This document shows, piece by piece, positions 3,944 to 55,249 of a stretch of 64,000 nucleotides of DNA. The notes below the pieces were generated by a model, which saw only the letters and a list, made by a program, of their open reading frames with translations, made no database searches and was not told the DNA's origin. Location of the stretch: the IMG/VR virus record IMGVR_UViG_3300027839_000001, positions 22,404 to 86,403 of that record. One strand, written 5' to 3'. Source of the DNA: a virus. A program made the position numbers and the translations under genes. How positions within the stretch are numbered: position 1 is the stretch's first letter; the number at the start of each line of letters is the position of its first letter.

Positions 3944-4877
3944 ACAGAAAAACATCTGCTCATACAAGGCAGTATGCAAGAAATGCAACATGGTGTCCCT
4001 CGATAACAGGCCAGCAATATGCAAAGAACTAGAATGCGAGCATCTAACCGTATGCTTAAAATGCGGAAAGAACAAGCACATAAAAGACGAAGACAAAACC
4101 CTGTGCGGGTCATGCTCTGGAAGAGGGGCGGACATAGAGTTCTCAACAAACGCAGAAGGAGACACGGTCGCCACCCCGGTAACGCAGAGCGATATCCACG
4201 AACCTATTTCCAGTGGAAACAATCAAACGGAGGGTGGTAATTCGGAGCTTGAGCAAACTGGAGTTGTCATAGAGATCACTCCACCTGGCGTAGCCCCAGA
4301 CTCATATTCTGAAGCCGAGAGGAAGTACTACCTTGAGCAGTACGAGCAGTACTCAGGCTACTACAGAGATCCGACCGCATACTTCCTGTGCCACCAGATC
4401 ATAATCACAGAGATTGAACTAAACTGGCTTACCTGTTACATGATCCAGACTAGGGGAGAGTTGACTAAGGAGCTTGACTCCAAGAAGACCAGACTCATAA
4501 GTAACCTCGAATCCCTTCGCAAACAGCTACCAGAGAAGGAAGCATTCGAGTTAAGCGACGACGAGAAGTCGATGGCGATGATTCACGACTCGTACATGAA
4601 GGAGAAGGAAGCAAGAGAGGGCCTTGGCGTGAGGAGGATGTTCAGTGATGCAGCCATAGCACTAGCACCTGTCCTAGACTTTCCAATGGACCTACAGTAC
4701 CTGCTTCAGTCACTTGGATATGATACCGTAACGGCATTAGATGTTGCACAGAAGCACTTAGACTCAGGGGCAGACCTGCCTGAGGACCCGCATCAAGTCG
4801 CCCTTTTCTTTGGGTATGAATTGAACAGCGAGTACGCATTACCACTAGATGGAAAGGCAAAAGAAGATGGCAACTAG
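3936..4877 (+). CDS. Cys-rich (zinc-finger) protein, possible terminase small subunit
   Basis: Several CxxC pairs at the N-terminus; directly upstream of and overlapping the terminase large subunit. Confidence 0.5.
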   Translation: MAEQKNICSYKAVCKKCNMVSLDNRPAICKELECEHLTVCLKCGKNKHIKDEDKTLCGSCSGRGADIEFSTNAEGDTVATPVTQSDIHEPISSGNNQTEGGNSELEQTGVVIEITPPGVAPDSYSEAERKYYLEQYEQYSGYYRDPTAYFLCHQIIITEIELNWLTCYMIQTRGELTKELDSKKTRLISNLESLRKQLPEKEAFELSDDEKSMAMIHDSYMKEKEAREGLGVRRMFSDAAIALAPVLDFPMDLQYLLQSLGYDTVTALDVAQKHLDSGADLPEDPHQVALFFGYELNSEYALPLDGKAKEDGN

Positions 4878-8340: not shown

Positions 8341-10158
8341 ATGCCTTTCACACTTGACGATTTCATACACAAGATCGGCGCTCCTGAGTCAGGCGACTCT
8401 CGGGAGAGAGTAGTAGGAGACAACGCCTCCGTCCAGACCATGGACGTTGGTGAGATCAGGGACATGTTTCCAGATGTCCAGTTCTCTGATTCGCCAAACA
8501 TAATCTACTTCCCGATGAAGCTCTGCCATTCGCTACCTACAGTCAACAAGAAGCGACGGTGCTTCACCACCAAGACCCTGGCAAACTCCTTTGCTTCCGC
8601 TCAAGACAGCTTGATTGATATCGAGCATTCTCTTATTGACAATGGCATCTCCTCTCGCGATGAGATCTGTGGTCACATCAAAGCAGTGGCTTATGCCAAG
8701 GAAGGTTTACAGTGGAAAGAAGTTGCAGACGCAAGCTCGATCCCAGACAGCGCAGTCCCCTTGTACGCCCTCGGTGCCTTGTACATGCGGCACTCGAAGA
8801 TCCCAGACATAGTTAAGAACCACTTGACAGGACGCGAGCAGTGGAAGGTTTCGATGGAGTGCGGGCACAAGTGGTCCGATGCGGCCCTCTACTACCGAGA
8901 CGAGTTCATTCCATTTGCCGACGCAGATGGTGACATGCTTGAATGCGTTCACGGCAATGGAGTCAAAGACTACAAGGGTCACGAGATGGCAGTAGCCCTG
9001 GGTGGTGTCGACGGTAAGGTAAGCTTCTGGGGAGCAGGTATTACCACCTCCCCGGCAGATGATACCAGCGACGTACTGGCAATGGTTGCTGGCACCAGTC
9101 TCGAAGTCGCATCATCCAGCAGCGGAAAAATCTTTCTTCCACTAAAATATAAAATTTTTAGTGGTGAAGAAAATTGCGTGGAGGTTGCCAGCGTAGCTGT
9201 CGATACAATGATTAACGATTTAGCTAGCATTGCCATAATCGGCAAGACACAGCCTGGAGATGAAGACGGGCACGTTCATGAAATTCTTAGCGACGGAACG
9301 ATTTTGCCGTCCAATGGTCACGTACATTATCTACAGAACATGAACTTAGTGAGGGGCAACAAGCCTAAGCTCACTGGACGAACCGACACTCACCACAGTT
9401 ATTGGCGAGATCCTCAGGGCACAGAGCATTCTGAGGTTCATCTGCACATCGTTGACGTGCCGCTCAGGGGTAAGAACAACTCTGGCGACACAGTTGTACC
9501 AGAAGAAGCATCCTTACCCGGAGACATCGAAGTGAAATTCAAAGATCTATTCAAGAAAATGGAAGACGCAACTAAAAAGATTTCCAGTGGAAATCCGGTA
9601 GACGAGGCGACTCAAAAAGAGTTCGCAAGTCTAGTCACTGAGATGCGTCAGTCGTCCGTACAGGCAGACTTTGACGAGTCAGTCAAGAGTGAGATCGCCA
9701 GCCAGATTGAAGGCGGCGAACTCATGACTAAAGAGCAGCACGAAACTATGCTTAACGAGGCTCTTGAGTTGAAGCAAACTGAATTTGATGCAGTCAAAGC
9801 ATCGGACGAAAAGCATGCATCGCGACTCAAGGAAATCTCAGACATCGGAGTCAACCTTGAATACAAGTTCGAGGAAGATGACGAAGAGACAATCGAAGAA
9901 CAAGTTAAAGCCATGTCGCACGACGAAGCTGGCGACAAGATGTTCAAGAGAACGATCAATCTCCTGAAGCAACTGGCTAAGGCCGCAACCTCCGAAGAAG
10001 AAGTTGAAGAAGTTGAAGTCGTCGCTGATACTGCGAGCGTCAACAAGAAGGTTCAACTACTGGTAGGCGCTGGGTCAACTGAACAGGCCGCTGAAACGGC
10101 AAGCACGAAAGTAACGAAGAGTCTTCGTGGACGAAGTGCAATCTCTTACGCTAAGTAA
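8341..10158 (+). CDS. prohead protease/scaffold fusion
   Basis: Protease-like N-terminus (IDIEH, KVSMEC, FWGAGITTSPAD) and acidic coiled-coil C-terminus; position before the capsid genes; AGGAG before ATG 8341. Confidence 0.65.
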   Translation: MPFTLDDFIHKIGAPESGDSRERVVGDNASVQTMDVGEIRDMFPDVQFSDSPNIIYFPMKLCHSLPTVNKKRRCFTTKTLANSFASAQDSLIDIEHSLIDNGISSRDEICGHIKAVAYAKEGLQWKEVADASSIPDSAVPLYALGALYMRHSKIPDIVKNHLTGREQWKVSMECGHKWSDAALYYRDEFIPFADADGDMLECVHGNGVKDYKGHEMAVALGGVDGKVSFWGAGITTSPADDTSDVLAMVAGTSLEVASSSSGKIFLPLKYKIFSGEENCVEVASVAVDTMINDLASIAIIGKTQPGDEDGHVHEILSDGTILPSNGHVHYLQNMNLVRGNKPKLTGRTDTHHSYWRDPQGTEHSEVHLHIVDVPLRGKNNSGDTVVPEEASLPGDIEVKFKDLFKKMEDATKKISSGNPVDEATQKEFASLVTEMRQSSVQADFDESVKSEIASQIEGGELMTKEQHETMLNEALELKQTEFDAVKASDEKHASRLKEISDIGVNLEYKFEEDDEETIEEQVKAMSHDEAGDKMFKRTINLLKQLAKAATSEEEVEEVEVVADTASVNKKVQLLVGAGSTEQAAETASTKVTKSLRGRSAISYAK

Positions 10159-26772: not shown

Positions 26773-28104
26773 ATGTTTTGGTACGTCGGGCCACTCGCCT
26801 ACACCGAGGAGCCAATTGCATCCGAAGAGATCGCGACGATGCGAGCCAAGACGGTGCGCGGAAGTAATCCGCCCCGTAAGCAACTCGGGCCGAACGAACT
26901 GCCCCCGCCTCAATACGCATGGACAATGCCAGCACGACTTAGCACGCGAGGAGGTCGAATGCTCGACCTTCGCCCGTTCGGATCTATGGCTAACACCAAC
27001 GACAGCGGCGGCGAGAATCATTTCGCTATCGTGGCTACCGACAGCCGACCGGGTACGACGCCCGACGGCTGGACTTATTTAGGCGGCGGAAATCCCGGCG
27101 ATGTCACGCTCGACACGCAACAGCGCCAGCGAATCGGAACCGGCGCGGGTATCACTATCGAGTCGAACAGTCTATCCGGCGCGATCCATGAGGCGTTCGT
27201 TTACAAAGCCGACCCAGAGGGGCTTACCGGCCCCAAGCCGGTGATGCCCTCTCGACACAGCCGCGTGACCTTTCGCGGATTAGGCCGACATCGGAGTCTG
27301 TTTGTTCCGATTGAATGGAACCGGCCCGAGTTCAAGCCATACCTCGACCACATACGCAAGGAATACAAGCACCGACTCGACGGATCTCAAGACGATGTCA
27401 AGCACCGGATGTGGATCGCTCAATTCCTCGACAACCACGGCATCAACCGAGCCGAGTTCCGAAACTTCCAAGATCCGACCACGCCGCCCGAGTCGCCGTT
27501 GGACCCACAGACGCCAATTACGGAATCATTCCCCGGCACATCCGGCACTCTCGGCGGCGACCTCACTTGGTACGAATACGACAGCAACTTTCAGAACGTC
27601 GGCGGGGTCGGGTTCAAGTCGAGCAGCGCCCACGGGACGGCTCGCGTCGAGCAGGATATGAGCGGCGGCGACGTGTGGGTACAGAACGCCATCAATGGCG
27701 GGCAAAATGGGTGGTTTGGCTGCGCTGTTCGGTTCGCGTCGGACGCGGAGACGTGCTATTGGTCATACACCCGAGGCGGAAGTGCGGGCAATAAGCACGC
27801 TCGGATAACCAAGCGAGTCGCCGGAACGGATTCGACGCTAACGGATGTCATCGGTTCCGCGTTTCCTAATAGCGATTACAATGAACGCCTTGAGATAATC
27901 GGCAGCAATCTAGAATTGCTCGCCAACGACGAAACAACTAGCCACCTCACCGTGACCGATTCGTCTCTCAGTTCAGCCAACGTCCGCGTTGGAGTCAGCG
28001 GGCGAGACAGCGGTGGGGACGCATTTGCGTACGACTTCCAGGCCGATGTGTTTGCGGCTGCTGGCAACGTCGTCGGAATGGTTACAGCAGCCTACATGAG
28101 CTGA
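26773..28104 (+). CDS. tail-associated protein with C-terminal beta-sandwich (lectin-like) domain
   Basis: GAGGTG RBS before ATG 26773; GC/CpG-richer than flanks; Gly/Ser/aromatic beta-rich C-terminus. Confidence 0.55.
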   Translation: MFWYVGPLAYTEEPIASEEIATMRAKTVRGSNPPRKQLGPNELPPPQYAWTMPARLSTRGGRMLDLRPFGSMANTNDSGGENHFAIVATDSRPGTTPDGWTYLGGGNPGDVTLDTQQRQRIGTGAGITIESNSLSGAIHEAFVYKADPEGLTGPKPVMPSRHSRVTFRGLGRHRSLFVPIEWNRPEFKPYLDHIRKEYKHRLDGSQDDVKHRMWIAQFLDNHGINRAEFRNFQDPTTPPESPLDPQTPITESFPGTSGTLGGDLTWYEYDSNFQNVGGVGFKSSSAHGTARVEQDMSGGDVWVQNAINGGQNGWFGCAVRFASDAETCYWSYTRGGSAGNKHARITKRVAGTDSTLTDVIGSAFPNSDYNERLEIIGSNLELLANDETTSHLTVTDSSLSSANVRVGVSGRDSGGDAFAYDFQADVFAAAGNVVGMVTAAYMS

Positions 28105-44996: not shown

Positions 44997-45414
44997 TTGG
45001 CATATCCGTTGTGAATGAAAGAGCGAGTAGTCTCATGATCCTAAAGGCTTCCAGAACGCGAGCCGGAAGCCTGTCCTTGGAGTCTTCGTCGTCGAACAAA
45101 TTACCTATCATTTGTATCTCTTCCTGATACTCAGAAGCCTGGGCTATCAAGCGATGCCTAGCACCAATGAAATTCAGTTGCTCACCTGACATCTTTCCAG
45201 TGGAAATACTAAGCAGTGTTTCCGCTGCGTCCCTGAACTCTTCCGATGGTACTACCAGCGTAGCGGAGGTTGCGAACAGCCCCTCAATCGGTATAGTCAA
45301 GGATGTGATTGTCACTGTCCTTACCTCGTCATTGTAGGTCCACTCAACAGTGCTGCGTGTGTCGCTATCGTTGATTGATTTATGCAGTGGCGAATTGCCT
45401 TCTTCAGTTGTCAT
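44989..45414 (-). CDS. hypothetical protein
   Basis: ATGA overlap with the SNF2 gene. Confidence 0.6.
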   Translation of the reverse strand: MTTEEGNSPLHKSINDSDTRSTVEWTYNDEVRTVTITSLTIPIEGLFATSATLVVPSEEFRDAAETLLSISTGKMSGEQLNFIGARHRLIAQASEYQEEIQMIGNLFDDEDSKDRLPARVLEAFRIMRLLALSFTTDMPNG

Positions 45415-48400
45415 ACCGTCTCCTCTTCGCCGTCTTCCATTCGTTTCTTAATGTTATCCACAGCCAGCCACATGTTTCGTTTCAGTACATCATCTGTACC
45501 ATCAACGATTGAGTCGGCATACTGGCGAATATCTGGTATCATCGACACTGAACAATCAGCGAACTCCATATAGTCAATACCTTCTGAGTGGCTACGTCCC
45601 TTAAGGTAGCACAATGCACACATGTATTCATCGATGCTTCCCTTGTGCATTAGGAAGTGCGATGTTACAACCTTTTTCTGCGAGGGCCTGAGCATTCGAG
45701 CTATGCCCTGCATACTATCCGATGGCTCCCAGCTATAGTCCTGAATGATACCGTAGTTAGCCTCAGGTATATTCAGTCCCTCTGCTAGGCATGCCAAGCC
45801 AGCCCACATGACACTATAGTTGTCATTCCTGAATGACTGAACCATCCTGTGTCGCTTGCTTCTCGTTTGTCCTTTCGCGATCTCATTGGTAACGCTCCCT
45901 TCTATGATCATTGACGGGATCTTGTTGATGTCGGCCCATCTCTTCTGGAGCTTAAGCACCCCAGTACGACGAGCAAACATAATGACCTTGTTCTCTAATG
46001 CAACCTGCTCTTTGACTAACTCTTGGGTTCGTATCATCTTCTGTGTCAATGGACCCTTGTACGTATCAATCATGGTGGCCCATTGCCGCATCTCTTTGTC
46101 CTTACTCTTGGCGATACCAGCAAGCATCAGGTGCGGTACTGTACTGGCACCGATGAGGTAGCCGAGCTTAGTCATTAGCTCACCGGGCTTAACGCCCTTG
46201 CCTTCCTCCTCTTCCTTCATCTTCTGCCACCAGTCAGAGAAGAACTGCAACCACTTGTTGTAGTAAGCCTTGTGTTCGTCGTCCATCTCTACTGATTCAT
46301 CAATTGCTACCTGTTGGATCATAGGTATGTCGCATAGTACGTTGGGCTGGTTGCGAACACTGCGCCTCATAAGTGGTGATAGCTCAGCCTGAAAAAGCTC
46401 AGCGTTGTTTATCTTTGGTATCTGCTTGGGCTTGCCACCTATCATGTCACCGTTAGGTAGCTGCACAGCGTCAATCATTACCTCTGTCTTGAACTTCTTA
46501 AGGAAAGCACCAAGACCTCCAGTGTACTTACGGTAGTCAGGGTACACTTGCCTGTCAAAGATCCAGTTGAGATACCCAACGATAGACTGAGGCATGCCCT
46601 TGAGTGGGGTGCCAGTGGCACCGTATCGAGTACGACCACACAAGTGATTCAATGCCTTAGTTCTTAGTGCATCCTCATTCTTTGCGTAAAGGATCTCATC
46701 GACGATTACGTGGTTGAATGTCCAGCGTATCACCTCACTGAATGTCCACTTGACATGTGCCTTACGAGGCTTGACTGAGTACTTAGGGGTCTGTGTCTCC
46801 TCCCCTGTTAGCGGGTCCTTGTGAACGTCGTAGCCTATTTGGCATGGCACCATCTTTTTGTGCATCTGCTTCTGCTCTACCATTTTGGTAGGCACAGGCT
46901 TTCCAGTGGAAAACTTATTGGTGAATCGAGTGTCAGTTAGCTCGCACTCGTACTCAGGTATGTCCTTCCTTGTTATATGCGACGGGTCCCAGTGAACTCT
47001 CTTCATGGTCTTGGTGTGAACCTTGAACTTCTGTCTCTTGAGCCTACCAAGCTCATCCCTTTCGGTGCTGTGTGCACTCCATTCATCGAAGTCACTAGAC
47101 GTACACTTGACACACTCTTGCTCATGCTTATAGGCTGAGTACGTTACGTCCTCACACTTCGGACACTTATAGAACCTTCCATCCCTCGGCGTGTCCTTCA
47201 GCTTATCGAACGTGATGATGTTGAATGTCTTGAGGTTAGCCGGTAAGCAATCCTCTGCGAACTGGATGATGTTAGGTGCCGTGACATCTAACTTCTTACC
47301 AGACCAATGCTTCCTCGTTGTCCTGGCGTAAGGGATGATGGTGCCTTCGATCTCGTCTTGCCATGTGCCGACAAGCTTACTAGGGCAGACGATCAATGTG
47401 TTCTCGGCACCCCTTAGGATGGCAGCGAACAGCATCTCCCGTGTCTTACCTAGTCCCATCACGTTGCCATTCAGAAGGCTCTGCTTGGCAGCGTGTTCAA
47501 TGACATCCTCGAACTGAAACTTGTACATGTTGCTGGCTAGGTGCATCTTCATCTTGATAGCACGGGCACGCCACATATCCATGATCTCTGGGAACACTGC
47601 ATTCAGATCCATATCTTCGTACAGGGTTTCCCATTTCGTTTCCTCTGTCTGATCAATCTCGCTAGTACCCTTGATCGGCACCAGCCGTGTCATTGGGGTG
47701 AGTTGAATGTTGAGCCACCTAGCTCGCTTCTTCATCAGGTGGTGGTCACTGGCTGTCATTACTGGTATCATACCAGCACGTGAGATGGCATTGGTCAGAG
47801 ATTCCCTTACGTCAACCAAGTTACCATAGAGATGCTTCATGTCGAAGTTACTTACAAGGCAATCCTTTTCCTTGTGATACTCAAACCCAAGTGAGATCCG
47901 TATGTCCTGCAATGCACCTCGACTGGCTGCATTGTATGACATGAGCTTGATCTTACTGTTAGTGGGCTTGATGTGAATGGCATGAGGCATTGACTTGATG
48001 TCAGCTACATCCTCTATCACATTGATGGCAAGCCTGTTACTGTCAGTAGTCTCGAAGAACCATGTATCCTCTGGCTCCCTTAGGCCATGGGGACTCTTGT
48101 TGGTAGTGCCACACCAGTGGCTGTAGTCATTCTCTTGGAGCATCTTCTTCCATGCCCGTACACTATTGAGCCACCATTCACTACGCTTGAATGACTTCGA
48201 GCAAGTGTCGATGGCTTCATCGCTCAGACTTTCCAGTGTAAAGTTGAACTGGTTCCATCTGTACTCAGCCCAGTCAAGCAACGCACCTTGCTTTGATGAC
48301 CGGGGTAGGTCAGTGTCTTGGGCACCGGACTTATCTCTTGGTCTGAACCATATGATCAGGTCCCATTCACCGGGTGCCTGTAGCTCAGTGGTGCCACTGT

Positions 48401-49208
48401 GTCTATCGTATGGCTTGATGTCAAAGTTCTTGTTACCGTACAGGTAGTCCTTCGACGACGTTCTACGTGGGTACTGCCATCGTACAGCAGACTCAGGTAG
48501 CCTGATCTTAGCTACCACGGCAGCATTCTCACGCCACCATGTGAGGTACTTCATGTGACGACCTGCCCAGTTCTTGGGTACGACCGATGCGAAGTAACCA
48601 CCTACCATTACGGAAGTCATGAGAGACTCAAGCCCCATTAGGTGGTTCTCTGCCTCTCTTTCATCACTGGACTTGGAGCAGTTCCAGATCAACAGCTTGT
48701 CCTTGATAAGCTGAGGCTTGATTAACTGCGTCTGTTCTTCACGCTCCAAGGCAAACGCCCGCTGTAGACAACGGGCATCTTGATTGAGATCCTTCTCCAG
48801 CTTGGTCAGTCCAGCCAGGTCATAGTCGAACACGCTGAATGCCAGGTGGAACTTATCTCTCTCTTGGTACAGTTGGTAGTCATTGGTCGTCACTCCCCTT
48901 ACTGACGTGGATAATTTCTCTTCGGTGATCTTGTTGAGAAGATCTCTGTCACTTGATATGGTTGTAATTTTCGCTTCCATGTCTGCAAGCTCACGAACAA
49001 CGTGACTTGAATTAGTGAGTGACGGGCAGTATAGCTGCACTCCAGACGGAAACTGCAAAAGACTCCTTAGTATTGCGGCGATCTTTGGATCGACTGTAAT
49101 CATTGACATTACCTTGTAAGTATTTACAGTGGAAAGAAACGCGGGGGGTACAGTGCGAGCGATGACGTAGTCATCATGATTCCATGGGGGAATCGCACTC
49201 GACTGCAC
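45411..49208 (-). CDS. SNF2-family helicase with N-terminal degenerate adenine-MTase-like domain (DarB-like architecture)
   Basis: NVMGLGKT, LIVCP, IVDEILYAKN, ATGTP, AEGLNI, QGIARMLRPSQ; N-terminal GGYFASVVP..VVAKIRLP..DLIIWF. Confidence 0.8.
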   Translation of the reverse strand: MQSSAIPPWNHDDYVIARTVPPAFLSTVNTYKVMSMITVDPKIAAILRSLLQFPSGVQLYCPSLTNSSHVVRELADMEAKITTISSDRDLLNKITEEKLSTSVRGVTTNDYQLYQERDKFHLAFSVFDYDLAGLTKLEKDLNQDARCLQRAFALEREEQTQLIKPQLIKDKLLIWNCSKSSDEREAENHLMGLESLMTSVMVGGYFASVVPKNWAGRHMKYLTWWRENAAVVAKIRLPESAVRWQYPRRTSSKDYLYGNKNFDIKPYDRHSGTTELQAPGEWDLIIWFRPRDKSGAQDTDLPRSSKQGALLDWAEYRWNQFNFTLESLSDEAIDTCSKSFKRSEWWLNSVRAWKKMLQENDYSHWCGTTNKSPHGLREPEDTWFFETTDSNRLAINVIEDVADIKSMPHAIHIKPTNSKIKLMSYNAASRGALQDIRISLGFEYHKEKDCLVSNFDMKHLYGNLVDVRESLTNAISRAGMIPVMTASDHHLMKKRARWLNIQLTPMTRLVPIKGTSEIDQTEETKWETLYEDMDLNAVFPEIMDMWRARAIKMKMHLASNMYKFQFEDVIEHAAKQSLLNGNVMGLGKTREMLFAAILRGAENTLIVCPSKLVGTWQDEIEGTIIPYARTTRKHWSGKKLDVTAPNIIQFAEDCLPANLKTFNIITFDKLKDTPRDGRFYKCPKCEDVTYSAYKHEQECVKCTSSDFDEWSAHSTERDELGRLKRQKFKVHTKTMKRVHWDPSHITRKDIPEYECELTDTRFTNKFSTGKPVPTKMVEQKQMHKKMVPCQIGYDVHKDPLTGEETQTPKYSVKPRKAHVKWTFSEVIRWTFNHVIVDEILYAKNEDALRTKALNHLCGRTRYGATGTPLKGMPQSIVGYLNWIFDRQVYPDYRKYTGGLGAFLKKFKTEVMIDAVQLPNGDMIGGKPKQIPKINNAELFQAELSPLMRRSVRNQPNVLCDIPMIQQVAIDESVEMDDEHKAYYNKWLQFFSDWWQKMKEEEEGKGVKPGELMTKLGYLIGASTVPHLMLAGIAKSKDKEMRQWATMIDTYKGPLTQKMIRTQELVKEQVALENKVIMFARRTGVLKLQKRWADINKIPSMIIEGSVTNEIAKGQTRSKRHRMVQSFRNDNYSVMWAGLACLAEGLNIPEANYGIIQDYSWEPSDSMQGIARMLRPSQKKVVTSHFLMHKGSIDEYMCALCYLKGRSHSEGIDYMEFADCSVSMIPDIRQYADSIVDGTDDVLKRNMWLAVDNIKKRMEDGEEETV

Positions 49209-49233
49209 CCCCTTGCGTCATACGGATGGTCAG

Positions 49234-51096
49234 TTAGACGATGTCTTCTTCACCGCCATCTACATCTTCGTACTCGCCTTCGGCGTCGTCGAATACGCTG
49301 TCAATATCTGCATCGGAAATCTCACCATCATCCGGTACGTCGGATGTATCATCGTCGAACGGTGTGGACTCATCCTCATCCTCATCCTCATCCTCGTCTT
49401 CGTCTTCCTCCTCTAGCTGTGGGATCTCGTACTCAGGCTTCAGTGCAAGCAGTGCTTGGTACTGCTCTTTCTCAAGCAACTCCTCGACTGTGTTCTCAAG
49501 AGCCTTGAAGTACGCCTCAAGGTTCTCCACGTAATCATTGTAAACATCTTCGACTGCCGCTGTCTTGTCATCAAGTCCAACAGCATCGTAGCACGTCAGT
49601 GCAGCGAACAGATGTGCTGCCTGGGTTACAAGCTCACGATCCTTCGGCGGCTCCAACGCGATGTTGTTAGACGCCTTGACGTAGGCATCAGCAATCTTCT
49701 CGATGTTGCTTGCCTCCTTCATGCTGTATTTCTCTTTGACTGGGGCATTGATAGCCTTCGTCTTCTTCTCACTTGTCGGTGCTGCCTTCTCAGCACTGTC
49801 TCCAGTGTCAGCGTCGGACTCACCTGCTGCTGGCACGATGTCATCATCATCACCTACATCGTGCCCTCCAATGGCTGCGTTGATCATCTCGTCTTCAGTA
49901 GCCTGCTGCTGGTCGGCGAGCGAGTCAACGTCATGCTCATTGGTGTCAGCATCAGTATTTACAGTGGAAACTGCTGGAGTAGCAGCAGGGGCATCAGCAG
50001 CAGTTACCTCAGCCGCTTCCTTCTTCTCCTCTGCCGTAGCCTTATCCCCCTTCTTGTCAATGTTCGAGAGGACTTTCGACGAGCGAAGCATCCCCATGAA
50101 CTGAGTATAATCCACAGGAGAACTGGTATCGTCAGGCTTTCCATCTTCACCTACTTTCGATAGGACCTTGAGTAACTTGGCAGTCTGCTGCCATGACAGT
50201 GGTGACGACTTATGCATCACTGACCCCGAGTACTCACGAAGGTGAGAGAACGGAATAGAAAGCTTGTCAGTGACAGGCATCTTGATTCTCTGTAGTAAAG
50301 ACTCAACGGCAGTCTCAAGTACAGCGAGTTCAGTAGCGTCAGTGACGTTGATCTTGAATAGATCTCGAAGGAACTGCGGTAGTGCATGCACCTTCTTTAG
50401 CTGCGACACAGCACCAGCAGATCGTGATCGAACAACAGTAGCGATGTCCTTCCCAGGGATTCCTTCCTCGACCATGATAGCAACATGCGTGCATCGGTCG
50501 AACAGTGAAACGTCTTCTCGAATGTCATTCTCTGCCATGCTTGCAAGCATAGCTTCGGTCTGATTCTCAATGACCTGCATCTTAACAAGCAGTGGGTATG
50601 CCTTCAGTGCGTTGTCATATTTCTCTCGCCACTCAGGTGATGCATCACGAACTTTCATTCGTTCGATGTGATTAGCGAATCCACCACCAGCGAGTTGAAT
50701 CTCTCCATCAGTTCCCTTTAGGTCATTCTCTTTGTTGTACGCCATCATAACCTTGCGTACTGCATTGCGAATGGCACTCTCTGTTCGACAGTACCCAGAG
50801 TACAGTGCTGCCTTGCCGGTGTCTCCCGCTACGAGCAGGGAGGCACAGACATTCTGCTGCTGCTGACCTGACTTGTTGTCACCGAACTGTGACTGCAAGT
50901 TCATGATGTGTTCTTCAGTTACCGACGTTCGGTAGTTCTTCCAGTGATCGTTCACTATGTCGTACAGGCTCAGTGTTACCATTCCGTCTGACGGGATGAT
51001 TGTATCACCATCTGCTGCTAGGTAAGCCATGACTGCTTTGCTGGATGTGTCTGCCTTGGGTGCTACTTTTTTGGCGGGTGTTGTGGATTTAGCCAT
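49234..51096 (-). CDS. ParB/KorB-like protein (CTPase-type N-domain plus HTH) with acidic tail
   Basis: NYRTSVTEEHIMNL, YSGYCRTESA (GxxR), AENDIREDVSLFD (ENxxREDL), HTH-like GKDIATVVRSRSAGAVSQLKKVHALP; poly-D/E C-terminus. Confidence 0.75.
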   Translation of the reverse strand: MAKSTTPAKKVAPKADTSSKAVMAYLAADGDTIIPSDGMVTLSLYDIVNDHWKNYRTSVTEEHIMNLQSQFGDNKSGQQQQNVCASLLVAGDTGKAALYSGYCRTESAIRNAVRKVMMAYNKENDLKGTDGEIQLAGGGFANHIERMKVRDASPEWREKYDNALKAYPLLVKMQVIENQTEAMLASMAENDIREDVSLFDRCTHVAIMVEEGIPGKDIATVVRSRSAGAVSQLKKVHALPQFLRDLFKINVTDATELAVLETAVESLLQRIKMPVTDKLSIPFSHLREYSGSVMHKSSPLSWQQTAKLLKVLSKVGEDGKPDDTSSPVDYTQFMGMLRSSKVLSNIDKKGDKATAEEKKEAAEVTAADAPAATPAVSTVNTDADTNEHDVDSLADQQQATEDEMINAAIGGHDVGDDDDIVPAAGESDADTGDSAEKAAPTSEKKTKAINAPVKEKYSMKEASNIEKIADAYVKASNNIALEPPKDRELVTQAAHLFAALTCYDAVGLDDKTAAVEDVYNDYVENLEAYFKALENTVEELLEKEQYQALLALKPEYEIPQLEEEDEDEDEDEDEDESTPFDDDTSDVPDDGEISDADIDSVFDDAEGEYEDVDGGEEDIV

Positions 51097-51270
51097 TCTG
51101 AAAGGCTCCTTGTTAATGATGTAAGTATGTCTTCACTTTTACAATTAGTCGATCTCTCTGAATGAAATAGGTAGAAGGACATGAACACGTCCCACATTGC
51201 TACAAAAACTAAGGCACCTATCCATACATACCAAGGTATAGAGTTGTATGCTATCAGTATCACACTCGCT

Positions 51271-51768
51271 CTACTCCCATGCTTTCTTTACAGTGGAAAC
51301 TGCACTCAGTTTATCCACAAAGCTTACGTTACCTCTGTCTTGTTCAGCCTGCACTTCGGACATGACAGTCACGCAGTGCTTCTCTATCAGTGCCGCTTCT
51401 TCCAGGCCCACTTTGAGGGACTCTGATATATCTTTTGCTTCCACCTCATACACTGGCACGTACTGCCTGACGATTGACGCAAGCTGTAGGTGCTTGCTAC
51501 GTACTATGACATGTGCCTTCGCAGCCGCTCGGGCTATAATCTTTTCAACACCGTTGGCATGGAATGCATGCATGTGCTTAGTGAACCCTTCAAGGGACAC
51601 TACCATTAACAACGTGCTGTCCTTAATCTTTATCGAGTGACTGTACTTGTCATACTCGACCTTCAACTTTACCAGATGCGGTATCTCTGGCTCTTTGTTT
51701 TTATCTTTTTCTGGTTCGCTTGGACTTGGATTCGGCCCTTGCCCTGGAGGTTTTTTGCCATCTGTCAT
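51271..51768 (-). CDS. hypothetical protein
   Basis: 165-aa ORF. Confidence 0.6.
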   Translation of the reverse strand: MTDGKKPPGQGPNPSPSEPEKDKNKEPEIPHLVKLKVEYDKYSHSIKIKDSTLLMVVSLEGFTKHMHAFHANGVEKIIARAAAKAHVIVRSKHLQLASIVRQYVPVYEVEAKDISESLKVGLEEAALIEKHCVTVMSEVQAEQDRGNVSFVDKLSAVSTVKKAWE

Positions 51769-52078
51769 AGATTGCCTTGCTCTCTTTCAAGTGAAGGATG
51801 ATTCGGATGACGTGTTCTTCTACGTACTGGAGTGATCTCTTTGACTGGGTCGCTAGGATGCCAAGTATGATCTGGTATCCTACGTCCTCGTTCTCTACAC
51901 ATCCATTGTGCTTGTCCCTCATGTGCTTGTACTTAGTTCGCAGGTCCTTCATTGCAGTACGCATGTTCGGATATGAGACTGGTACTCCCCAGTCTTTCAT
52001 GACTACTGTTCGAGTGATTGACCCGCCTTCATCACATGATTGTACCATAGTGTCGTATGCAATGCAATACCTAGTCAT
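51701..52078 (-). CDS. hypothetical protein
   Basis: 125-aa ORF tiling the minus-strand array. Confidence 0.5.
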   Translation of the reverse strand: MTRYCIAYDTMVQSCDEGGSITRTVVMKDWGVPVSYPNMRTAMKDLRTKYKHMRDKHNGCVENEDVGYQIILGILATQSKRSLQYVEEHVIRIILHLKESKAIYDRWQKTSRARAESKSKRTRKR

Positions 52079-52080
52079 GA

Positions 52081-52653
52081 TTATTTCTCTTTCTCTGCTT
52101 TCTTAAGTTCTTTCTCTCTTGCCTTCTCCGCAGCCTGCTCAATGTCCCAGTGTAGTTTCCACTGGAAATCGGAAGGGTACTTGTTGACCTCCAGTACGTT
52201 GAAGTCCTTCTCGTTTGCCTGGTCCCTCATGAGTGCTACTACATACGGACACTTCTTTGCTACCTTTGAACCACGGTACTTACCTTGCTTGGCAGGCATG
52301 AGTGATGTCATTGTGATGCACTTCTTTCCTCCGTACTTAGAAGCCATGGCAGCAAGCCTCCACCATTGACCGTACTGGCGAATGAGGGAGTTTCCTATGA
52401 CTGACTTGCCTTCTAGTCTGACGGTATCCGATACGTGGAACTCAGGCCACTCGGTATCATGCTCTGCTTCGGGGTCCGGCAGTACATCAGTCTCATCGGA
52501 TTCTGCCGAGTAATCTTTTTTCGCTTTCTCTATAGCTTCAATGAGAGTGGTGCCACATGTACCAACGTATGTGACGCCGTCCTTTTGCCATGCATAATGC
52601 TCAAGGCCAGCAAGGAATCCCTGCAACCACACTTCTGCCATTACCTTAGCCAT
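52081..52653 (-). CDS. hypothetical protein
   Basis: 190 aa; GAGGAGG upstream. Confidence 0.6.
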   Translation of the reverse strand: MAKVMAEVWLQGFLAGLEHYAWQKDGVTYVGTCGTTLIEAIEKAKKDYSAESDETDVLPDPEAEHDTEWPEFHVSDTVRLEGKSVIGNSLIRQYGQWWRLAAMASKYGGKKCITMTSLMPAKQGKYRGSKVAKKCPYVVALMRDQANEKDFNVLEVNKYPSDFQWKLHWDIEQAAEKAREKELKKAEKEK

Positions 52654-52907
52654 CAGTCATCCTCCTCGTCAGTGTACCAGCTATCACCATCCCTATCGTC
52701 AGTCCATTGTCCAATGTAATCTTGATCCCTCTCGTCGCCTGGTGCTGGCCGATTCAAGCATCCGTCGCAGATAGATGACGGGTTGTTGATTGGTAGCTTG
52801 GCACCACATGTACAGATCATGTTCAATTGTTGGCCCGTGTTGTCATCGAAGTCAGGGCAGCATCCTAGCTCGTGTCCACAGCAGGGGTAGTCTTCGCATC
52901 TACTCAT
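52653..52907 (-). CDS. small Cys-rich protein
   Basis: RCEDYPCCGH..CTC..ICDGC; AAGGAG RBS. Confidence 0.65.
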   Translation of the reverse strand: MSRCEDYPCCGHELGCCPDFDDNTGQQLNMICTCGAKLPINNPSSICDGCLNRPAPGDERDQDYIGQWTDDRDGDSWYTDEEDD

Positions 52908-52919
52908 TTGCTCTCTCCT

Positions 52920-53207
52920 TTACGTAGGTTGATTGGGGTTCTTAAAGTACACTGCCTCTGGGTCAAGGTAGTCCCATACTTTTCCAGTGGAAACTTCCTT
53001 GGCTGATATGATGCTGGCACTGTCAGATATGACATCGGTGCGAGCAAGGATCACCGCTTGTTCTAGGTCTGGTGATGGTTGGTTCATCTTGATTGATCGC
53101 TCGGCACCGTTACCGTTACAGCAATGCTCGTCACCATCCTTAGGTAGTGGGCCGAGGGTATAGTATATGACGTACTGGGAGCCGGTTATGGTACGTAGTT
53201 CTGCCAT
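52920..53207 (-). CDS. hypothetical protein
   Basis: 95-aa ORF. Confidence 0.55.
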   Translation of the reverse strand: MAELRTITGSQYVIYYTLGPLPKDGDEHCCNGNGAERSIKMNQPSPDLEQAVILARTDVISDSASIISAKEVSTGKVWDYLDPEAVYFKNPNQPT

Positions 53208-53270
53208 TGGTTACCTGTAGGTAGGGTGTTAGGTATACTGTAGAGCGTGGGGATACGATAGATTATAGAA

Positions 53271-53345
53271 GGATAGGGGGTGGTGTGAGGACAAGTCACT
53301 CACCCCCTATCCAATGAGAGAAGGATATCAAGTGCCCTCTCTCAT
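53271..53345. other. two adjacent intergenic hairpins
   Basis: GGATAGGGGGTG/CACCCCCTATCC (12 bp) and ATGAGAGA/TCTCTCAT (8 bp). Confidence 0.6.
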
Positions 53346-53401
53346 CCGTCGCAGCAAGTATATCGGCGTGTTAGTTACATTGGTTGAGCTAGGAACTTAC
53401 A

Positions 53402-53989
53402 CTATACTTGCTGCTCTGGTTCAGTAGGTTCTTCTTCTGCAATCTTCTTCACTGCGTGTGCAGTAGCATCGTCAAGCCTAGTATGCCCTGACTCAATTGG
53501 CTTGAGGTATGTCAGTTCGTATGACTTGCCAAGCAGGCCAGCTTTCTTGCATGCATCGGCAACTTTGAGTACCTCGTTGTAATCGTTGCACTCAACAAGT
53601 TCGCAGGCATCGAGCAGTTCTTTCTTGATCCACCCTCCCACTGTCATGTCACTGCTGGAACTTGACCCGCGTGTCACCTCACGGTAGTCCGAGTACGAAG
53701 CAAGGATGTCATCAAGACACTGGAACTTGACCCTCGATGATGACAGTGCAATGGTGATGATGTTCTCCATGCCTGCACTGATTGCTTGGAATCCATGGTA
53801 CATTAGCGTTACCTCTTTGTGATAGTTGGTACTAGTGTAGCCCGCACCAGGGGCACGCAGCTTTGTTGGTGACGGCAACATGCCATTGATGTGCTTGTTC
53901 TTACCGCCTCGCTTGCCTTGGTTCTTTCCACTGGAAATCTTCTTGGCTTGCTTGGCAGCGTACTCTTCAGGTGTATTAACTTTAGTCAT
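53402..53989 (-). CDS. hypothetical protein
   Basis: AAGGA RBS before ATG 53989. Confidence 0.6.
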   Translation of the reverse strand: MTKVNTPEEYAAKQAKKISSGKNQGKRGGKNKHINGMLPSPTKLRAPGAGYTSTNYHKEVTLMYHGFQAISAGMENIITIALSSSRVKFQCLDDILASYSDYREVTRGSSSSSDMTVGGWIKKELLDACELVECNDYNEVLKVADACKKAGLLGKSYELTYLKPIESGHTRLDDATAHAVKKIAEEEPTEPEQQV

Positions 53990-54191
53990 TGGTGTTGTCC
54001 TTTGTACTTTCAATGCATGCATTGTCTACGTCGAAGTGAGTGGCGTCTGTCAGGTCGTATTCAAACGCCCTGCTGTGAACTCTGTTCTCTGCAAAGGTCT
54101 TCGCTTGTTCTTCGTTGTCTGCCTCGACGCCCTTCACCAAGAACTCTATCTTGCATTCGAGTGCGACTTCGTATGTATTCTTAAAGCTCAA
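53982..54191 (-). CDS. hypothetical protein
   Basis: 69 aa; VEADNEEQAK motif common in small phage early proteins. Confidence 0.55.
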   Translation of the reverse strand: MSFKNTYEVALECKIEFLVKGVEADNEEQAKTFAENRVHSRAFEYDLTDATHFDVDNACIESTKDNTND

Positions 54192-54969
54192 CTGGCACCT
54201 CGCAATCTACCCATGTGCTACCACGCTGGACTTGATACTTGTAGCACTCACCTGTTACGTAATGGCTACCGTCTTGCAGTAGTGAGTTGGATTCAATGAG
54301 GGGATTACGCTTGACGTATAGTGCCAAGGCCAAGGTGTCGGTCCCTTGCCATAGGTTCTCGGTGAACACCTCTTCACCATTGCCATCACCGTCAGACTTG
54401 CGGTCGAATCGACACAGCCTGTACGTATCAGTACGTGCAATCAATTCGTCGGTGTCTTGAGCGTCACGCTGTAAGCACCAGACATGAGCAAAGGAACCCT
54501 TCTCACGCTGTGCCCTGTAGAATAGGATGCGTGTACCACGGACGATCTCGTCGGCTCTCTCGTTGGCTGTCTCAATGCCATCCCCATCTAGGATAACATC
54601 AAGCCCACGTTGAATGACACCACGGTAAGCAGTGGCATGGAAGTACACGTCGCCGTCCGATGTCTCCATGAAGCCGAATCCCTTGTGAGGATTGTATCGC
54701 GTGACTTGCCCTGCCTCAAGGCTACTGACGTAGTACAGTGTACTCTTTTTGTGGGTCATCTTTCGTGCAATCTTTCCAGTCGGTAGCTTGAGCTTAGCCG
54801 ACCGCTTGAGGTATCTCTTGGTATCATCTTCTACCGTATAGGTTGTATCGGTGATGGGATTTGGTTTGGCTAACTCTTGTAGAATCTCTTCGGTCAGTGA
54901 GGTGATGTCATTGGCTTGTGATGTCGTCGCTGTCACTACTGGCATTGGGATGTTGAGTTTGTTGTTCAT
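54181..54969 (-). CDS. protein containing a cold-shock (OB-fold) domain
   Basis: GQVTRYNPHKGFGFMETSDGDVYFHATA (RNP1/RNP2-like). Confidence 0.75.
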   Translation of the reverse strand: MNNKLNIPMPVVTATTSQANDITSLTEEILQELAKPNPITDTTYTVEDDTKRYLKRSAKLKLPTGKIARKMTHKKSTLYYVSSLEAGQVTRYNPHKGFGFMETSDGDVYFHATAYRGVIQRGLDVILDGDGIETANERADEIVRGTRILFYRAQREKGSFAHVWCLQRDAQDTDELIARTDTYRLCRFDRKSDGDGNGEEVFTENLWQGTDTLALALYVKRNPLIESNSLLQDGSHYVTGECYKYQVQRGSTWVDCEVPVEL

Positions 54970-54997
54970 TTGCTTTATCCTTTATTTCCACTGTAAA

Positions 54998-55249
54998 TTA
55001 CATGAACTGTATCAAGGTGCCACGCTTCTTCATTTCAAAAGCACTGCGTACCTTGATGGTAAAGTCTTTCACGTCAGTCGTACTGACCGCGTTGATAAGC
55101 CTGCCAGCTTTCCTCATGCATTCCTTGATGGCACCACGACGTGATGGTGCCCGTAGCTCAGTTACTAGCGTGAGTTCTAAGCCAGCAGGCAGCAGGGATT
55201 TCTTTGTCACCCTGTCTATTGGTGTGAACTTAATGGTGTACCTTACCAT
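54998..55249 (-). CDS. hypothetical basic protein
   Basis: 83 aa; stop codon abuts the palindrome. Confidence 0.55.
   Translation of the reverse strand: MVRYTIKFTPIDRVTKKSLLPAGLELTLVTELRAPSRRGAIKECMRKAGRLINAVSTTDVKDFTIKVRSAFEMKKRGTLIQFM

Follow-up and report, generated by a model that had tools for sequence, protein, structure and literature searches.

A 620-residue protein (P0001, here ParB-L) encoded by a tailed phage is, on the evidence of family profiles and a predicted fold, a highly divergent member of the ParB/KorB superfamily, and the genome that encodes it carries 85 sites of a 13-bp palindrome, TTT(C/A)CA-N-TG(G/T)AAA, at about one per kb. We tentatively propose, with a confidence that falls a little short of even, that a ParB-L dimer reads this lattice genome-wide and so organizes or silences the phage DNA. 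Coordinates of ParB-L are those of the window, i.e. the whole 64-kb stretch of DNA analyzed, which lies within a complete phage genome of 86.4 kb (Table 1). The gene is real and conserved, with 64 homologue clusters of 540-690 aa, and it is a core gene kept by a group of ~80-100-kb marine siphoviruses using a DnaG-MCM primase-helicase. A gene for an SNF2-family helicase follows in the same direction, 25 bp downstream. A tRNA-Asp called by ARAGORN at 26945-27035 (-) is doubtful, being 91 nt long and situated within a large ORF.

Table 1. Features of the ParB-L locus (window coordinates unless marked as genome coordinates).
Feature	Position	Strand	Description	Basis
ParB-L gene	49234..51096	(-)	620-aa divergent ParB/KorB-superfamily protein P0001	ORF, profile and fold matches
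Shine-Dalgarno AAGGAG, ParB-L	51106..51111	(-)	9 nt before ATG	sequence reading
N-terminal tail, aa 1-36	50989..51096	(-)	Lys-rich, disordered	pLDDT <50
ParB/Srx-type nucleotide-binding domain, aa 37-200	50497..50988	(-)		HMM alignment to Spo0J/ParB/Noc
Family-specific helical insert, ~aa 112-170	50587..50763	(-)	between box II helix and box III	
HTH DNA-binding domain with helical extension, aa 201-365	50002..50496	(-)		profile match to KorB/ParB DNA-binding domains
Disordered acidic linker, aa 366-455	49732..50001	(-)	22 D/E vs 5 K/R	pLDDT <50
All-helical C-terminal domain, aa 456-556	49429..49731	(-)	predicted homodimer	pLDDT >90
Acidic tail, aa 557-620	49237..49428	(-)	36 D/E, 0 K/R in 64 residues	
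Palindrome copy in ParB-L linker codons	49958..49970	.	TTTACAGTGGAAA on +, read V-S-T-V-N (aa 376-380)	
Palindrome copy downstream of ParB-L	49123..49135	.	5' part of SNF2 gene	
Palindrome copy upstream of ParB-L	51287..51299	.	191 bp before start codon	
SNF2-family helicase gene	45411..49208	(-)	1265 aa	PF00176 5e-9, PF00271 1.2e-8
ParB-S	genome 14959-16335		458 aa; 57 kb from ParB-L, outside window	PF17762 E 2e-16

Searched directly, P0001 yields nothing useful in Pfam, PHROGs, NCBIfam or PDB sequences; PF02195 gives no match even at an E value of 1, the Pfam gathering threshold not being reached, and a word-indexed search with P0001 returned no homologue, having probably been swamped by low-complexity words. 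The affiliation emerges at the level of the family. A ParB-L family profile retrieves Spo0J (8e-18), ParB (2.5e-14), Noc (2.7e-14) and KorB (5e-8) from PDB sequences, and Pfam matches are found among 61 homologues to PF02195 (14 of them, with E values up to 0.01), PF17762 (6) and the KorB model PF08535, which matches 11 of these relatives, at best with 4.5e-8, and does not match P0001 itself. An AF2 model of ParB-L has a mean pLDDT of 80, exceeding 90 at aa 30-360 and 460-560, and the top Foldseek matches of the model are all Noc, ParB or KorB. By VIA-align its best match is KorB (8qa9; Z 12.2, rmsd 3.5, 204 of 208 residues), followed by ParB-parS (6t1f; Z 10.6) and Noc (Z 9.9). Taken separately, the N-terminal domain resembles ParB-CTPgammaS (7bm8; Z 10.1, rmsd 2.4 over 99 residues) and sulfiredoxin (Z 7.0), while the HTH domain resembles the complex of the KorB DNA-binding domain with its operator (1r71; Z 6.0, 114 of 115 residues). 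Profile and fold place ParB-L in the family at the level of the superfamily only.

These results bear out much of a preliminary description of the locus, which had proposed a ParB/KorB-like protein that AlphaFold could check: a ParB/Srx domain plus HTH is predicted with high confidence, KorB being the best match. All of the ParB-like motifs that it had listed are present in the order given, namely NYR (aa 54), TEEHIMNL (aa 60), SGYCRTESA (aa 100), AENDIREDVS (aa 188) and an HTH that ends in ALP (aa 238). The linker, helical domain and D/E-rich tail that it had noticed are likewise seen in the AF2 model and in the composition, and its ~55-aa insert after the GxxR helix appears in profile alignments to Spo0J/ParB as a gap separating two matched stretches. 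The insert is confidently modeled (pLDDT >90) and conserved in the family at N121, R146, W156, Y160, A163 and L164; it is not present in a paralogue, ParB-S, encoded elsewhere in the genome. The most conserved residues of the HTH domain are S231, R270 and R287. Most homologues lack the acidic tail, 10 of 12 close ones among those compared.

The pocket motifs of ParB-L read N54-x-R56, G101-Y-C-R104 and E189-N190-x-x-R193. Five residues at nucleotide-pocket positions of ParB (N54, R56, G101, R104 and N190) are each kept by 90% or more of 61 sequences and are the most conserved of the family, a pattern that speaks for a ligand. In box II, GYCR stands in place of GERR, so that the minimal GxxR is kept and the Glu and first Arg are replaced; box III, ENxxR, is present as E189-N190-D-I-R193, with E189 varying in the family. 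Hydrolysis of CTP by M. xanthus ParB requires the box II Glu, going by the entry for its E93A variant (PDB 7o0n). Since GYCR lacks this catalytic residue, CTP gating of ParB-L is something that we infer, and, given the changes in boxes II and III, CTP hydrolysis or binding may have been lost. The C-terminal domain is predicted to homodimerize: it scores 0.85 as a homodimer, the best control scoring 0.00, with at least 97% of contacts the same between runs and a partner pLDDT of at least 88. Among proteins of solved structure, 20 of 30 one-chain pairs and 1 of 23 single chains reach this homodimer mark. Its fold differs from PF23552 and from the KorB C-terminal domain, that is, from the known ParB/KorB C-terminal domains, and its matches are generic helical bundles, MIT domains among them (Z 9.4).

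The palindrome grid of about one site per kb, also claimed in the preliminary description, is real. Spacing has a coefficient of variation of 0.45, compared with 0.98 for random placement, and none of 10,000 random sets was equally even. Intergenic sites account for 41% of the total although the genome is 90% coding, and a single benign codon offset is used by 33 of the 50 intragenic sites, which lie inside genes on both strands. There is no constant orientation of sites relative to transcription; the central base is oriented one way towards one end of the genome and the other way towards the other, independently of transcription. A common variant, TTTACA...TGGAAA, alters one half-site without a compensating change, which fits the site of a dimeric protein and not a conserved hairpin. 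The arrangement TTT-NNN-S-NNN-AAA is also the format of the KorB operator OB, TTTAGCGGCTAAA (PMC11790492), and the TTTC half-site is ParB/Noc-like. As judged from its sequence, the 13-mer is a candidate loading site for a ParB-type protein, of KorB/Noc format.

In relatives, the lattice was judged from its protein-coding footprint in homologues. Read as codons, the palindrome gives [FLIV]S[ST]G[KN], which occurs 27 times in ParB-L homologues against 0.4 expected and 51 times in MCM homologues against 0.85 expected. It is found at numerous positions of the alignments, where exchanges of S and T reflect the G/C at the palindrome's center. ParB-L relatives commonly carry it in the N-terminal tail (VSTGK/N at aa 6-20), and VS[ST]G[KN] recurs in homologues at the equivalent linker position. 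MCM has 73 homologues, and homologues of ParB-L and MCM occur together on contigs of 79,035, 96,207 and 87,563 bp. By this indirect measure, the footprint, the lattice is conserved across the phage group, together with the ParB-L gene. Related loci were sought in viral, metagenome and genome contigs with P0001, P0002, P0003 or alignments, and none was found; tblastn and megablast against INPHARED phages gave none either. In IMG/VR, the listed matches to a 14-mer version of the site were only single ones at chance level, and Logan runs with partial shares of the phage DNA recovered low-coverage copies of the same phage (at least 99% identity), which are uninformative on site conservation. Contig searches with the MCM-primase alignment reached distant phages only, at 22-35% identity. 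In four distant MCM-primase phages (one 97% complete, three 40-78%) there is no grid in 14-22 kb around MCM, and their records contain neither ParB-L nor ParB-S. The HTH recognition helix of ParB-L is highly variable among homologues sharing the footprint, and splitting the homologues by presence of the footprint revealed no signature in this helix. A sequence-specific reader common to these phages would not be expected to vary in this way, unless its specificity resided elsewhere than in the HTH, as in KorB.

Two aspects of the preliminary description concern the company that ParB-L keeps. Its statement that no parA is recognizable in the window extends to the complete genome: no ParA-type family occurs in the Pfam matches of 93 ORFs, and six-frame searches of the genome with PF13614 and PF01656 found none, while controls were positive in 14 of 14 genomes. 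ParB-L thus departs from ParABS systems in having no cognate ParA ATPase in its genome and no N-terminal ParA-binding motif ([LFI]G[KR]G[LFI]) in its sequence. The genome encodes an integrase, and its presence together with the absence of ParA makes classical partition by ParB-L unlikely. The term "orphan" is apt as regards ParA, and not as regards other ParB proteins, since a second ParB-like gene, ParB-S, lies outside the window. ParB-S matches four PHROG ParB families and is more canonical than ParB-L; it sits within the replication module, its neighbors being a sigma-70-like gene and the replication genes, and palindromes surround its promoter. With this paralogue present, ParB-L is not the sole candidate reader, and the earlier claim that it is the best one is not borne out: ParB-S is an equally good candidate, and the MCM-primase has a predicted winged-helix domain.

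The alternatives turn mainly on which protein, if any, binds the lattice, and in what manner. That ParB-S reads it and ParB-L has another job is possible, though we consider it doubtful. ParB-L might then bind another site, e.g. a second palindrome family in the divergent control region, or act with the SNF2 helicase as a nucleotide-dependent regulator or anti-defense factor. ParB and Noc are themselves paralogues with split DNA specificity (PMC7383237), and ParB-S has the stronger canonical ParB HTH, a place in the replication module and palindromes at its promoter. In our own alignment to the proteins of that study, it keeps an S-H-A-R motif corresponding to the DNA-contacting R204 of ParB/Noc, and its residue at the permissive position 184 is Arg, where Noc, a reader of TTTCCC, has K (PMC7383237). 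A ParB-S homologue, P0141, also shares an 18,163-bp contig with an MCM homologue; it is, however, the one homologue of ParB-S that a word-indexed search found. The ParB contacts K171, S172 and N178 are V, K and R in ParB-S but R, S and Q in ParB-L, by an alignment made by eye that is weak, and both paralogues may bind the palindrome. Assigning DNA specificity from ParB/Noc positions 173, 179, 184 and 201 was dropped as too alignment-dependent. A different reading, and an unlikely one in our estimation, keeps ParB-L on the palindromes and dispenses with sliding, making it a nucleotide-independent static or bridging binder for which each site is a local roadblock or condensation node. The degenerate box II (GYCR) and variable box III Glu of the family favor such a non-clamp binder, and with sites ~1 kb apart long-range sliding is not needed. 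Precedents exist in ParT of SCP2, a CTP-independent ParB-like protein (PMC12260392), and in Cluster A mycobacteriophages, whose genome-wide repressor sites halt elongation (PMC9283540). Weighing against it, the residues most conserved in the family are those of the pocket, and the sites, unlike stoperators, have no fixed orientation with respect to transcription.

Of a different kind is the proposal that the palindrome is a replication element, read by the MCM-primase winged helix or an unrecognized initiator, to which ParB-L is unrelated; the lattice would then provide ~85 helicase-loading or priming sites at roughly the spacing of Okazaki fragments. We hold this to be very unlikely. It arises because the 13-mer is identical to the dyad core of the origin box of archaeal Orc1/Cdc6: an S. 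islandicus ORB used in a study of MCM recruitment begins with TTTCCAGTGGAAA (PMC12890983), a sequence that also lies within a T. barophilus primer (PMC11005403), and mini-ORBs of 13 bp, in which TTCC and GAA are conserved, are bound by Cdc6/Orc1 (PMC1904270). The phage does encode an MCM AAA+ domain, in its DnaG-MCM primase-helicase, whose conserved C-terminus (the C-terminal domain spans aa ~880-1100) models as a winged helix similar to MarR/CggR DNA-binding domains, and the flip of central-base orientation between genome ends, which does not follow transcription, would suit a replication function. Primases, however, normally recognize 3-nt sites. That winged helix shows no specific likeness to the one of Orc1, its matches being generic (best Foldseek E 0.016), and the genome has no Orc1/Cdc6 among the Pfam matches of its 93 ORFs. 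The four distant phages without a grid around MCM have homologous MCM-primases, C-terminus included. The host, moreover, is most likely bacterial, since the phage has a gene for sigma-70 region 2, a primase of the DnaG type, ribosome-binding sites of SD type and a proteome that is not halophilic. Among cultured phages with an MCM-primase, the nearest infect Bacillus, Microbacterium and Arthrobacter. The idea of a halophilic or archaeal host, raised by the ORB identity, was rejected on the same features (median pI 5.4, SD-type ribosome-binding sites, sigma-70, DnaG-type primase). Similarly improbable is a lattice read by no phage ParB at all and serving a host protein or a non-protein function, such as uptake, recombination, an RNA hairpin, packaging or condensation. 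The uncompensated half-site variant and the occurrence of sites in genes on both strands speak against it, as do the TTTC(C) half-site, which is of ParB/Noc type (PMC7383237), and the presence of two ParB paralogues in the genome.

Among known systems, KorB of the IncP-1 plasmid RK2, a global repressor of the ParB-CTPase family, provides the closest parallel to the proposed reading by ParB-L. KorB consists of a disordered N-terminal peptide, an N-terminal domain, a DNA-binding domain, a flexible linker and a dimerizing C-terminal domain (PMC11790492), and ParB-L has the same order of modules, with the HTH directly after the N-terminal domain, a disordered linker and a C-terminal domain predicted to dimerize. 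Both replicons carry 13-bp odd-centered sites of the form TTT-NNN-S-NNN-AAA, scattered inside and outside promoters. The differences are nonetheless substantial. Identity is ~11-16% and P0001 has no Pfam match; ParB-L has the ~55-aa insert in its N-terminal domain, a GYCR box II and an all-helical-bundle C-terminal domain; the phage has no IncC/ParA partner; 12 OB sites in 60 kb compare with ~85 in 86 kb, many of them intragenic; and the replicon is a plasmid in one case and an integrase-bearing tailed phage in the other. Noc of Bacillus, which is CTP-dependent, is like ParB-L a partner-less ParB paralogue, with many palindromes spread over the genome (~70 NBS sites), and its half-site, TTTCCC, is near the TTTCCA of the phage (PMC7383237, PMC8429893). 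The NBS, however, is an even 14/16-bp palindrome, and Noc carries a membrane-targeting helix at its N-terminus and functions in cell division; its Q173, K179, K184 and R201 are not recognizable in ParB-L, where the alignment is weak.

Orphan proteins of the ParB-CTPase fold are, according to a recent survey, common, with many uncharacterized examples on phages, and can bind CTP, ATP or GTP (PMC12704722). ParB-L shares with the class as described there its position outside a parAB operon, its lack of a ParA-binding motif and its residence on a mobile element. The passages of the survey considered here describe no site lattice, and, to the extent that the survey relies on PF02195, it would miss the ParB-L family, which falls below detection by that model. 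The Cluster A stoperators (13 bp) and the 17-bp dyad repeats of Cluster O (31-35 copies) resemble the lattice as tens of copies of a short motif in the genome of a siphovirus, frequently where two genes meet (PMC9283540, PMC4351075, PMC6439249). Stoperators differ in that they lack symmetry, are oriented along the direction of transcription and are recognized by an immunity repressor of gp71 type, not by a ParB, and the phage lattice is 2-3 times denser than the mycobacteriophage repeats and far more even, with over half of its sites intragenic. Archaeal ORBs and mini-ORBs share the dyad core (PMC12890983, PMC11005403) and the association with an MCM-type helicase; they cluster at origins, whereas the phage sites extend genome-wide in a virus of apparently bacterial host that has no Orc1/Cdc6.

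In the reading we tentatively prefer, a ParB-L dimer would dock on the 13-bp palindrome and, the sites being spaced at ~1 per kb, act genome-wide, either by sliding between sites as a nucleotide-gated clamp or by static or bridging binding, the outcome being that the phage DNA would be organized or silenced. We infer the choice of ParB-L over ParB-S as the binder, as well as the nucleotide gating, the sliding and the biological role. A bolder extension, which strikes us as improbable, is that the two partner-less ParBs load on the lattice and coat the whole genome as nucleotide-gated clamps, a virus-encoded chromatin in a cosmopolitan group of marine siphoviruses. Such a chromatin would silence the genome in lysogeny, or shield or compact the DNA, possibly with the SNF2 motor remodeling it; gene adjacency is all that suggests the phage chromatin and the "coat-plus-remodeler" idea offered in the preliminary description. 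ParB-type CTP switches serve in partition (ParB), nucleoid occlusion (Noc), long-range silencing (KorB) and anti-silencing (VirB), and we know of no ParB system described with a whole-genome coating role or with such a density of sites.

ParB-L defines a ParB family that is invisible to standard domain models, in which the insert beside the nucleotide pocket and the dimerization domain are new. The ORB-core identity in a phage with an MCM helicase poses a second question, which is independently testable. An in vitro test of lattice reading needs only protein, the 13-bp site and nucleotides, and, if either paralogue does read the lattice, these phages would offer a simple system for a ParB clamp with loading sites at ~1-kb intervals and no ParA.

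The 620-aa protein under study, ParB-L, is preceded by an AAGGAG 9 nt upstream of its ATG and contains every ParB-like motif quoted in the preliminary description, in the order claimed there. As a single query it found no match in Pfam, PHROGs, NCBIfam or PDB sequences. An exhaustive phmmer search with aa 1-345 against 1.84 billion representatives nonetheless returned 64 proteins, nearly all of 540-690 aa, and by homology ParB-L represents a real, conserved family. The profile of this family (61 members) matched Spo0J (8e-18), Caulobacter ParB (2.5e-14), Noc (2.7e-14), KorB (5e-8) and also Myxococcus ParB; each match was in two parts, jumping a family-specific segment of ~50 residues that corresponds to the insert previously put at ~55 aa. 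Scanned singly (n=61), 14 members reached PF02195, 11 reached PF08535 (KorB) and 6 reached PF17762. The acidic tail of ParB-L (64 residues, 36 D/E, no K/R) is missing in most homologues, and may serve, in this phage specifically, as a DNA mimic or an autoinhibitory appendage. A SNF2 gene in the same orientation begins 25 bp past the stop codon of ParB-L, a spacing that would be compatible with co-transcription and speaks to nothing beyond that.

The suggested kinship with ParB, KorB and Noc is borne out by the AlphaFold2 model, predicted on the family alignment, in which pLDDT exceeds 90 over aa 30-360 and 460-560 but falls below 50 over aa 366-455 and in the tail. Its top Foldseek matches were exclusively Noc, ParB and KorB, and in VIA-align the best match was 8qa9, the complex of KorB with KorA and DNA (Z 12.2, rmsd 3.5, 204/208 residues), followed by ParB-parS 6t1f (Z 10.6). 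The C-terminal domain (CTD) matched generic helical bundles only, and is predicted to homodimerise (score 0.85, where three controls reached 0.00 at best, with at least 97% of contacts agreeing between runs and partner pLDDT of at least 88); the mark applied was attained by 20 of 30 proteins whose solved structures are pairs of one chain vs 1 of 23 whose structures are single chains. ParB-L resembles KorB (PMC11790492) in its order of modules, namely a disordered N-tail, N-terminal nucleotide-binding domain, HTH DNA-binding domain (DBD), flexible linker and dimerising CTD.

Conservation reaches 90% or more of the 61 sequences at N54, R56, G101, R104, E106, N121, N190, R270 and P554. In HMM alignments N54-x-R56 corresponds to Q-P-R of ParB, G101 and R104 to the G and last R of GERR (box II), and N190 to the Asn of box III. 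Constraint within the family is therefore strongest on the ParB nucleotide pocket, and this speaks for a ligand. Box II reads GYCR in ParB-L and GFCR in most relatives, without the Glu that E93A replaces in M. xanthus ParB (PDB 7o0n), and the box III Glu is not constant across the family. Nucleotides that the ParB fold can bind include CTP, ATP and GTP (PMC12704722), and a ParB-like protein independent of CTP is known (PMC12260392).

The candidate binding site is a 13-bp palindrome, TTT[CA]CA-N-TG[GT]AAA, which forms a lattice of 85 matches in 86.3 kb. Its spacing has a CV of 0.45 vs 0.98 for random placement on the circularised genome, and the 10,000 random sets included none with spacing this regular. 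In a genome that is ~90% coding, 35 of the 85 are intergenic or placed at the end of a gene, and 33 of the 50 intragenic sites share the codon offset xTT-TCC-A(G/C)T-GGA-AAx, encoding the harmless peptide [FLIV]-S-[S/T]-G-[K/N]. The common variant carries a change in one half-site with the other left uncompensated, which fits a site for a dimeric protein rather than a hairpin. The KorB operator TTTAGCGGCTAAA (PMC11790492) has the same format, and the phage half-site TTTCC(A) resembles both TTTCCC of the Noc site and TTTCAC of parS (PMC7383237). On the + strand the central base is mostly C-type over the first ~9 kb (genome 1-9000), mostly G-type over the last ~22 kb (window 41800-64000) and mixed between, and the degenerate half-site is likewise polar; the switch in polarity coincides with the terminal repeat and is independent of gene orientation. 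Whereas stoperators (PMC9283540) are oriented with transcription, the lattice sites hold no single orientation relative to it.

Coordinates and strands of the features discussed, with other phage genes
Feature	Coordinates	Strand	Remarks
ParB-L	window 49234-51096	-	620 aa
Acidic tail of ParB-L	window 49237-49428	-
Palindrome copy within ParB-L gene	window 49958-49970		V-S-T-V-N, aa 376-380
Other palindrome copies (examples)	window 4207-4219; 9581-9593
ParB-S	genome 14959-16335	+	458 aa; outside window
MCM-primase (DnaG zinc ribbon + Toprim + MCM AAA+ fusion)	window 1-2779, upstream part back to genome 21880	+	1100 aa
Tape-measure protein
Integrase
RecD2-like helicase			split in two
Sigma-70 region 2 protein
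tRNA-Asp call (ARAGORN)	window 26945-27035	-	91 nt; doubtful

In relatives the site was tracked at the protein level, through its coding footprint in homologous proteins, and this offers a way to detect a DNA motif from relatives' proteins. In 65 proteins of the ParB-L family (ParB-L and 64 homologues), 27 instances of the pattern [FLIV]S[ST]G[KN] were counted, vs 0.4 in shuffled and 1 in reversed sequences, and 73 MCM-primases (that of the phage and 72 homologues) contain 51, vs 0.85 and 0. The enrichment is 60-fold in both families, and the footprints lie in segments that are disordered or variable. Among the MCM-primases the pattern appears at 15 or more alignment positions, with F, L, I or V as first residue and with S/T and K/N swaps, the S/T swap mirroring the central G/C of the palindrome. 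So many positions and residue swaps imply that the footprint marks a DNA-level element in relatives' genes rather than a protein motif. In ParB-L homologues it falls without exception in the disordered linker or disordered N-tail, and seven carry both, 1.11-1.27 kb apart. Footprint-positive members include the most distant relatives (~20% identity to ParB-L), so that the same palindrome is seen to be preserved over the whole range of the family.

Contigs of 79,035, 96,207 and 87,563 bp are each common to ParB-L and MCM-primase homologues. We compared four IMG/VR phages with a distant full-length MCM-primase homologue (one 97% complete, three 40-78%): no repeated motif was found in the 14-22 kb around their MCM genes, and their records yielded neither ParB-L, in a search with a positive control, nor a ParB HTH above cut-off. 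ParB-L gene and lattice thus appear to occur together, but ParB-S and the MCM-primase accompany them, at least in this genome.

ParB-S, a second ParB-like protein encoded 57 kb from ParB-L, matches PF17762 (2e-16) and four PHROG ParB families; the ParB-L family profile aligns with its N-domain (1e-11) and HTH (1e-6), the insert is absent, box II is GFCR, and the two proteins are best read as paralogues. ParA was found nowhere in the phage genome, and a ParA-binding motif in neither protein. The label "orphan" accordingly holds with respect to ParA but not with respect to a second ParB. Plasmid-type partition is unlikely, since an integrase is present and ParA absent.

ParB-L is a candidate reader of the lattice on the strength of its modelled fold, for which KorB is the best match, and of the KorB domain matched by 11 relatives. 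Its most conserved DBD residues are S231, R270 and R287, positioned where the recognition helix begins and beyond the HTH, and work on 1r71 reportedly places the specificity determinants of KorB downstream of its HTH. Pointing away from ParB-L is a recognition helix that is highly variable among footprint-positive members. ParB-S has a canonical HTH, an S-H-A-R motif and, when aligned by eye to PMC7383237, Arg at the Noc-type permissive position 184. The earlier ranking of ParB-L as best candidate must accommodate the paralogue as an equally good one, and both may bind the palindrome. A quite different and rather improbable reading makes the palindrome a replication element like the archaeal origin recognition box (ORB), read by the MCM-primase. 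The 13-mer TTTCCAGTGGAAA is identical at every position to the start of the S. islandicus ORB used in a study of MCM recruitment (PMC12890983) and to the dyad core of the box bound by Orc1/Cdc6, recurring in a Thermococcus barophilus cloning primer (PMC11005403); mini-ORBs, sites of Cdc6/Orc1, are 13 bp with conserved TTCC and GAA (PMC1904270). The MCM-primase (about 73 homologues, 36-60% identical, many of them from contigs of 80-101 kb) also has a conserved C-terminal winged helix (aa ~980-1035, pLDDT 90). Its fold matches are weak, however, and are to MarR/CggR-type DNA-binding domains rather than Orc1; the phage genome encodes no Orc1/Cdc6, the host is apparently bacterial, and the distant MCM-primase phages are without the lattice.

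The IMG/VR virus record, of which the window is bases 22404-86403, is complete (86,403 bp with 99-bp direct terminal repeats), and its gene content indicates a siphovirus. Metagenomes of seawater, marine, brine and sediment origin, taken from 22 studies (2017-2024), contain near-identical DNA (window 45000-54999). Four partial metagenome copies compared with the window are at least 99% identical to it and belong to this phage, which is cosmopolitan and varies very little. Its host is most likely bacterial, given the non-halophilic proteome (median pI 5.4), SD-type ribosome-binding sites before many genes, and the hosts of the nearest cultured phages by primase-helicase (Bacillus, Microbacterium, Arthrobacter). 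The tRNA-Asp call, opposite a 488-aa ORF in a GC-rich tail-gene segment, is doubtful given its length and position.

Orphan ParBs on phages are an already known class (PMC12704722), and sites repeated throughout the genome have been described for mycobacteriophages of Clusters A and O (PMC9283540, PMC4351075, PMC6439249). New, as far as sequence and model indicate, is a family of ParB proteins under the detection level of Pfam, which has an insert next to the nucleotide pocket and a predicted dimerisation domain of a new kind, and whose member here is paired with a paralogue. We know of no denser or more even ParB-type site lattice, and the association of ParB-L with such a very dense, even lattice of candidate sites, conserved across a marine phage group, is likewise new. 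Because site density and KorB-like architecture fit such a role, we infer that the system would act genome-wide, in silencing, compaction or protection of the phage DNA.
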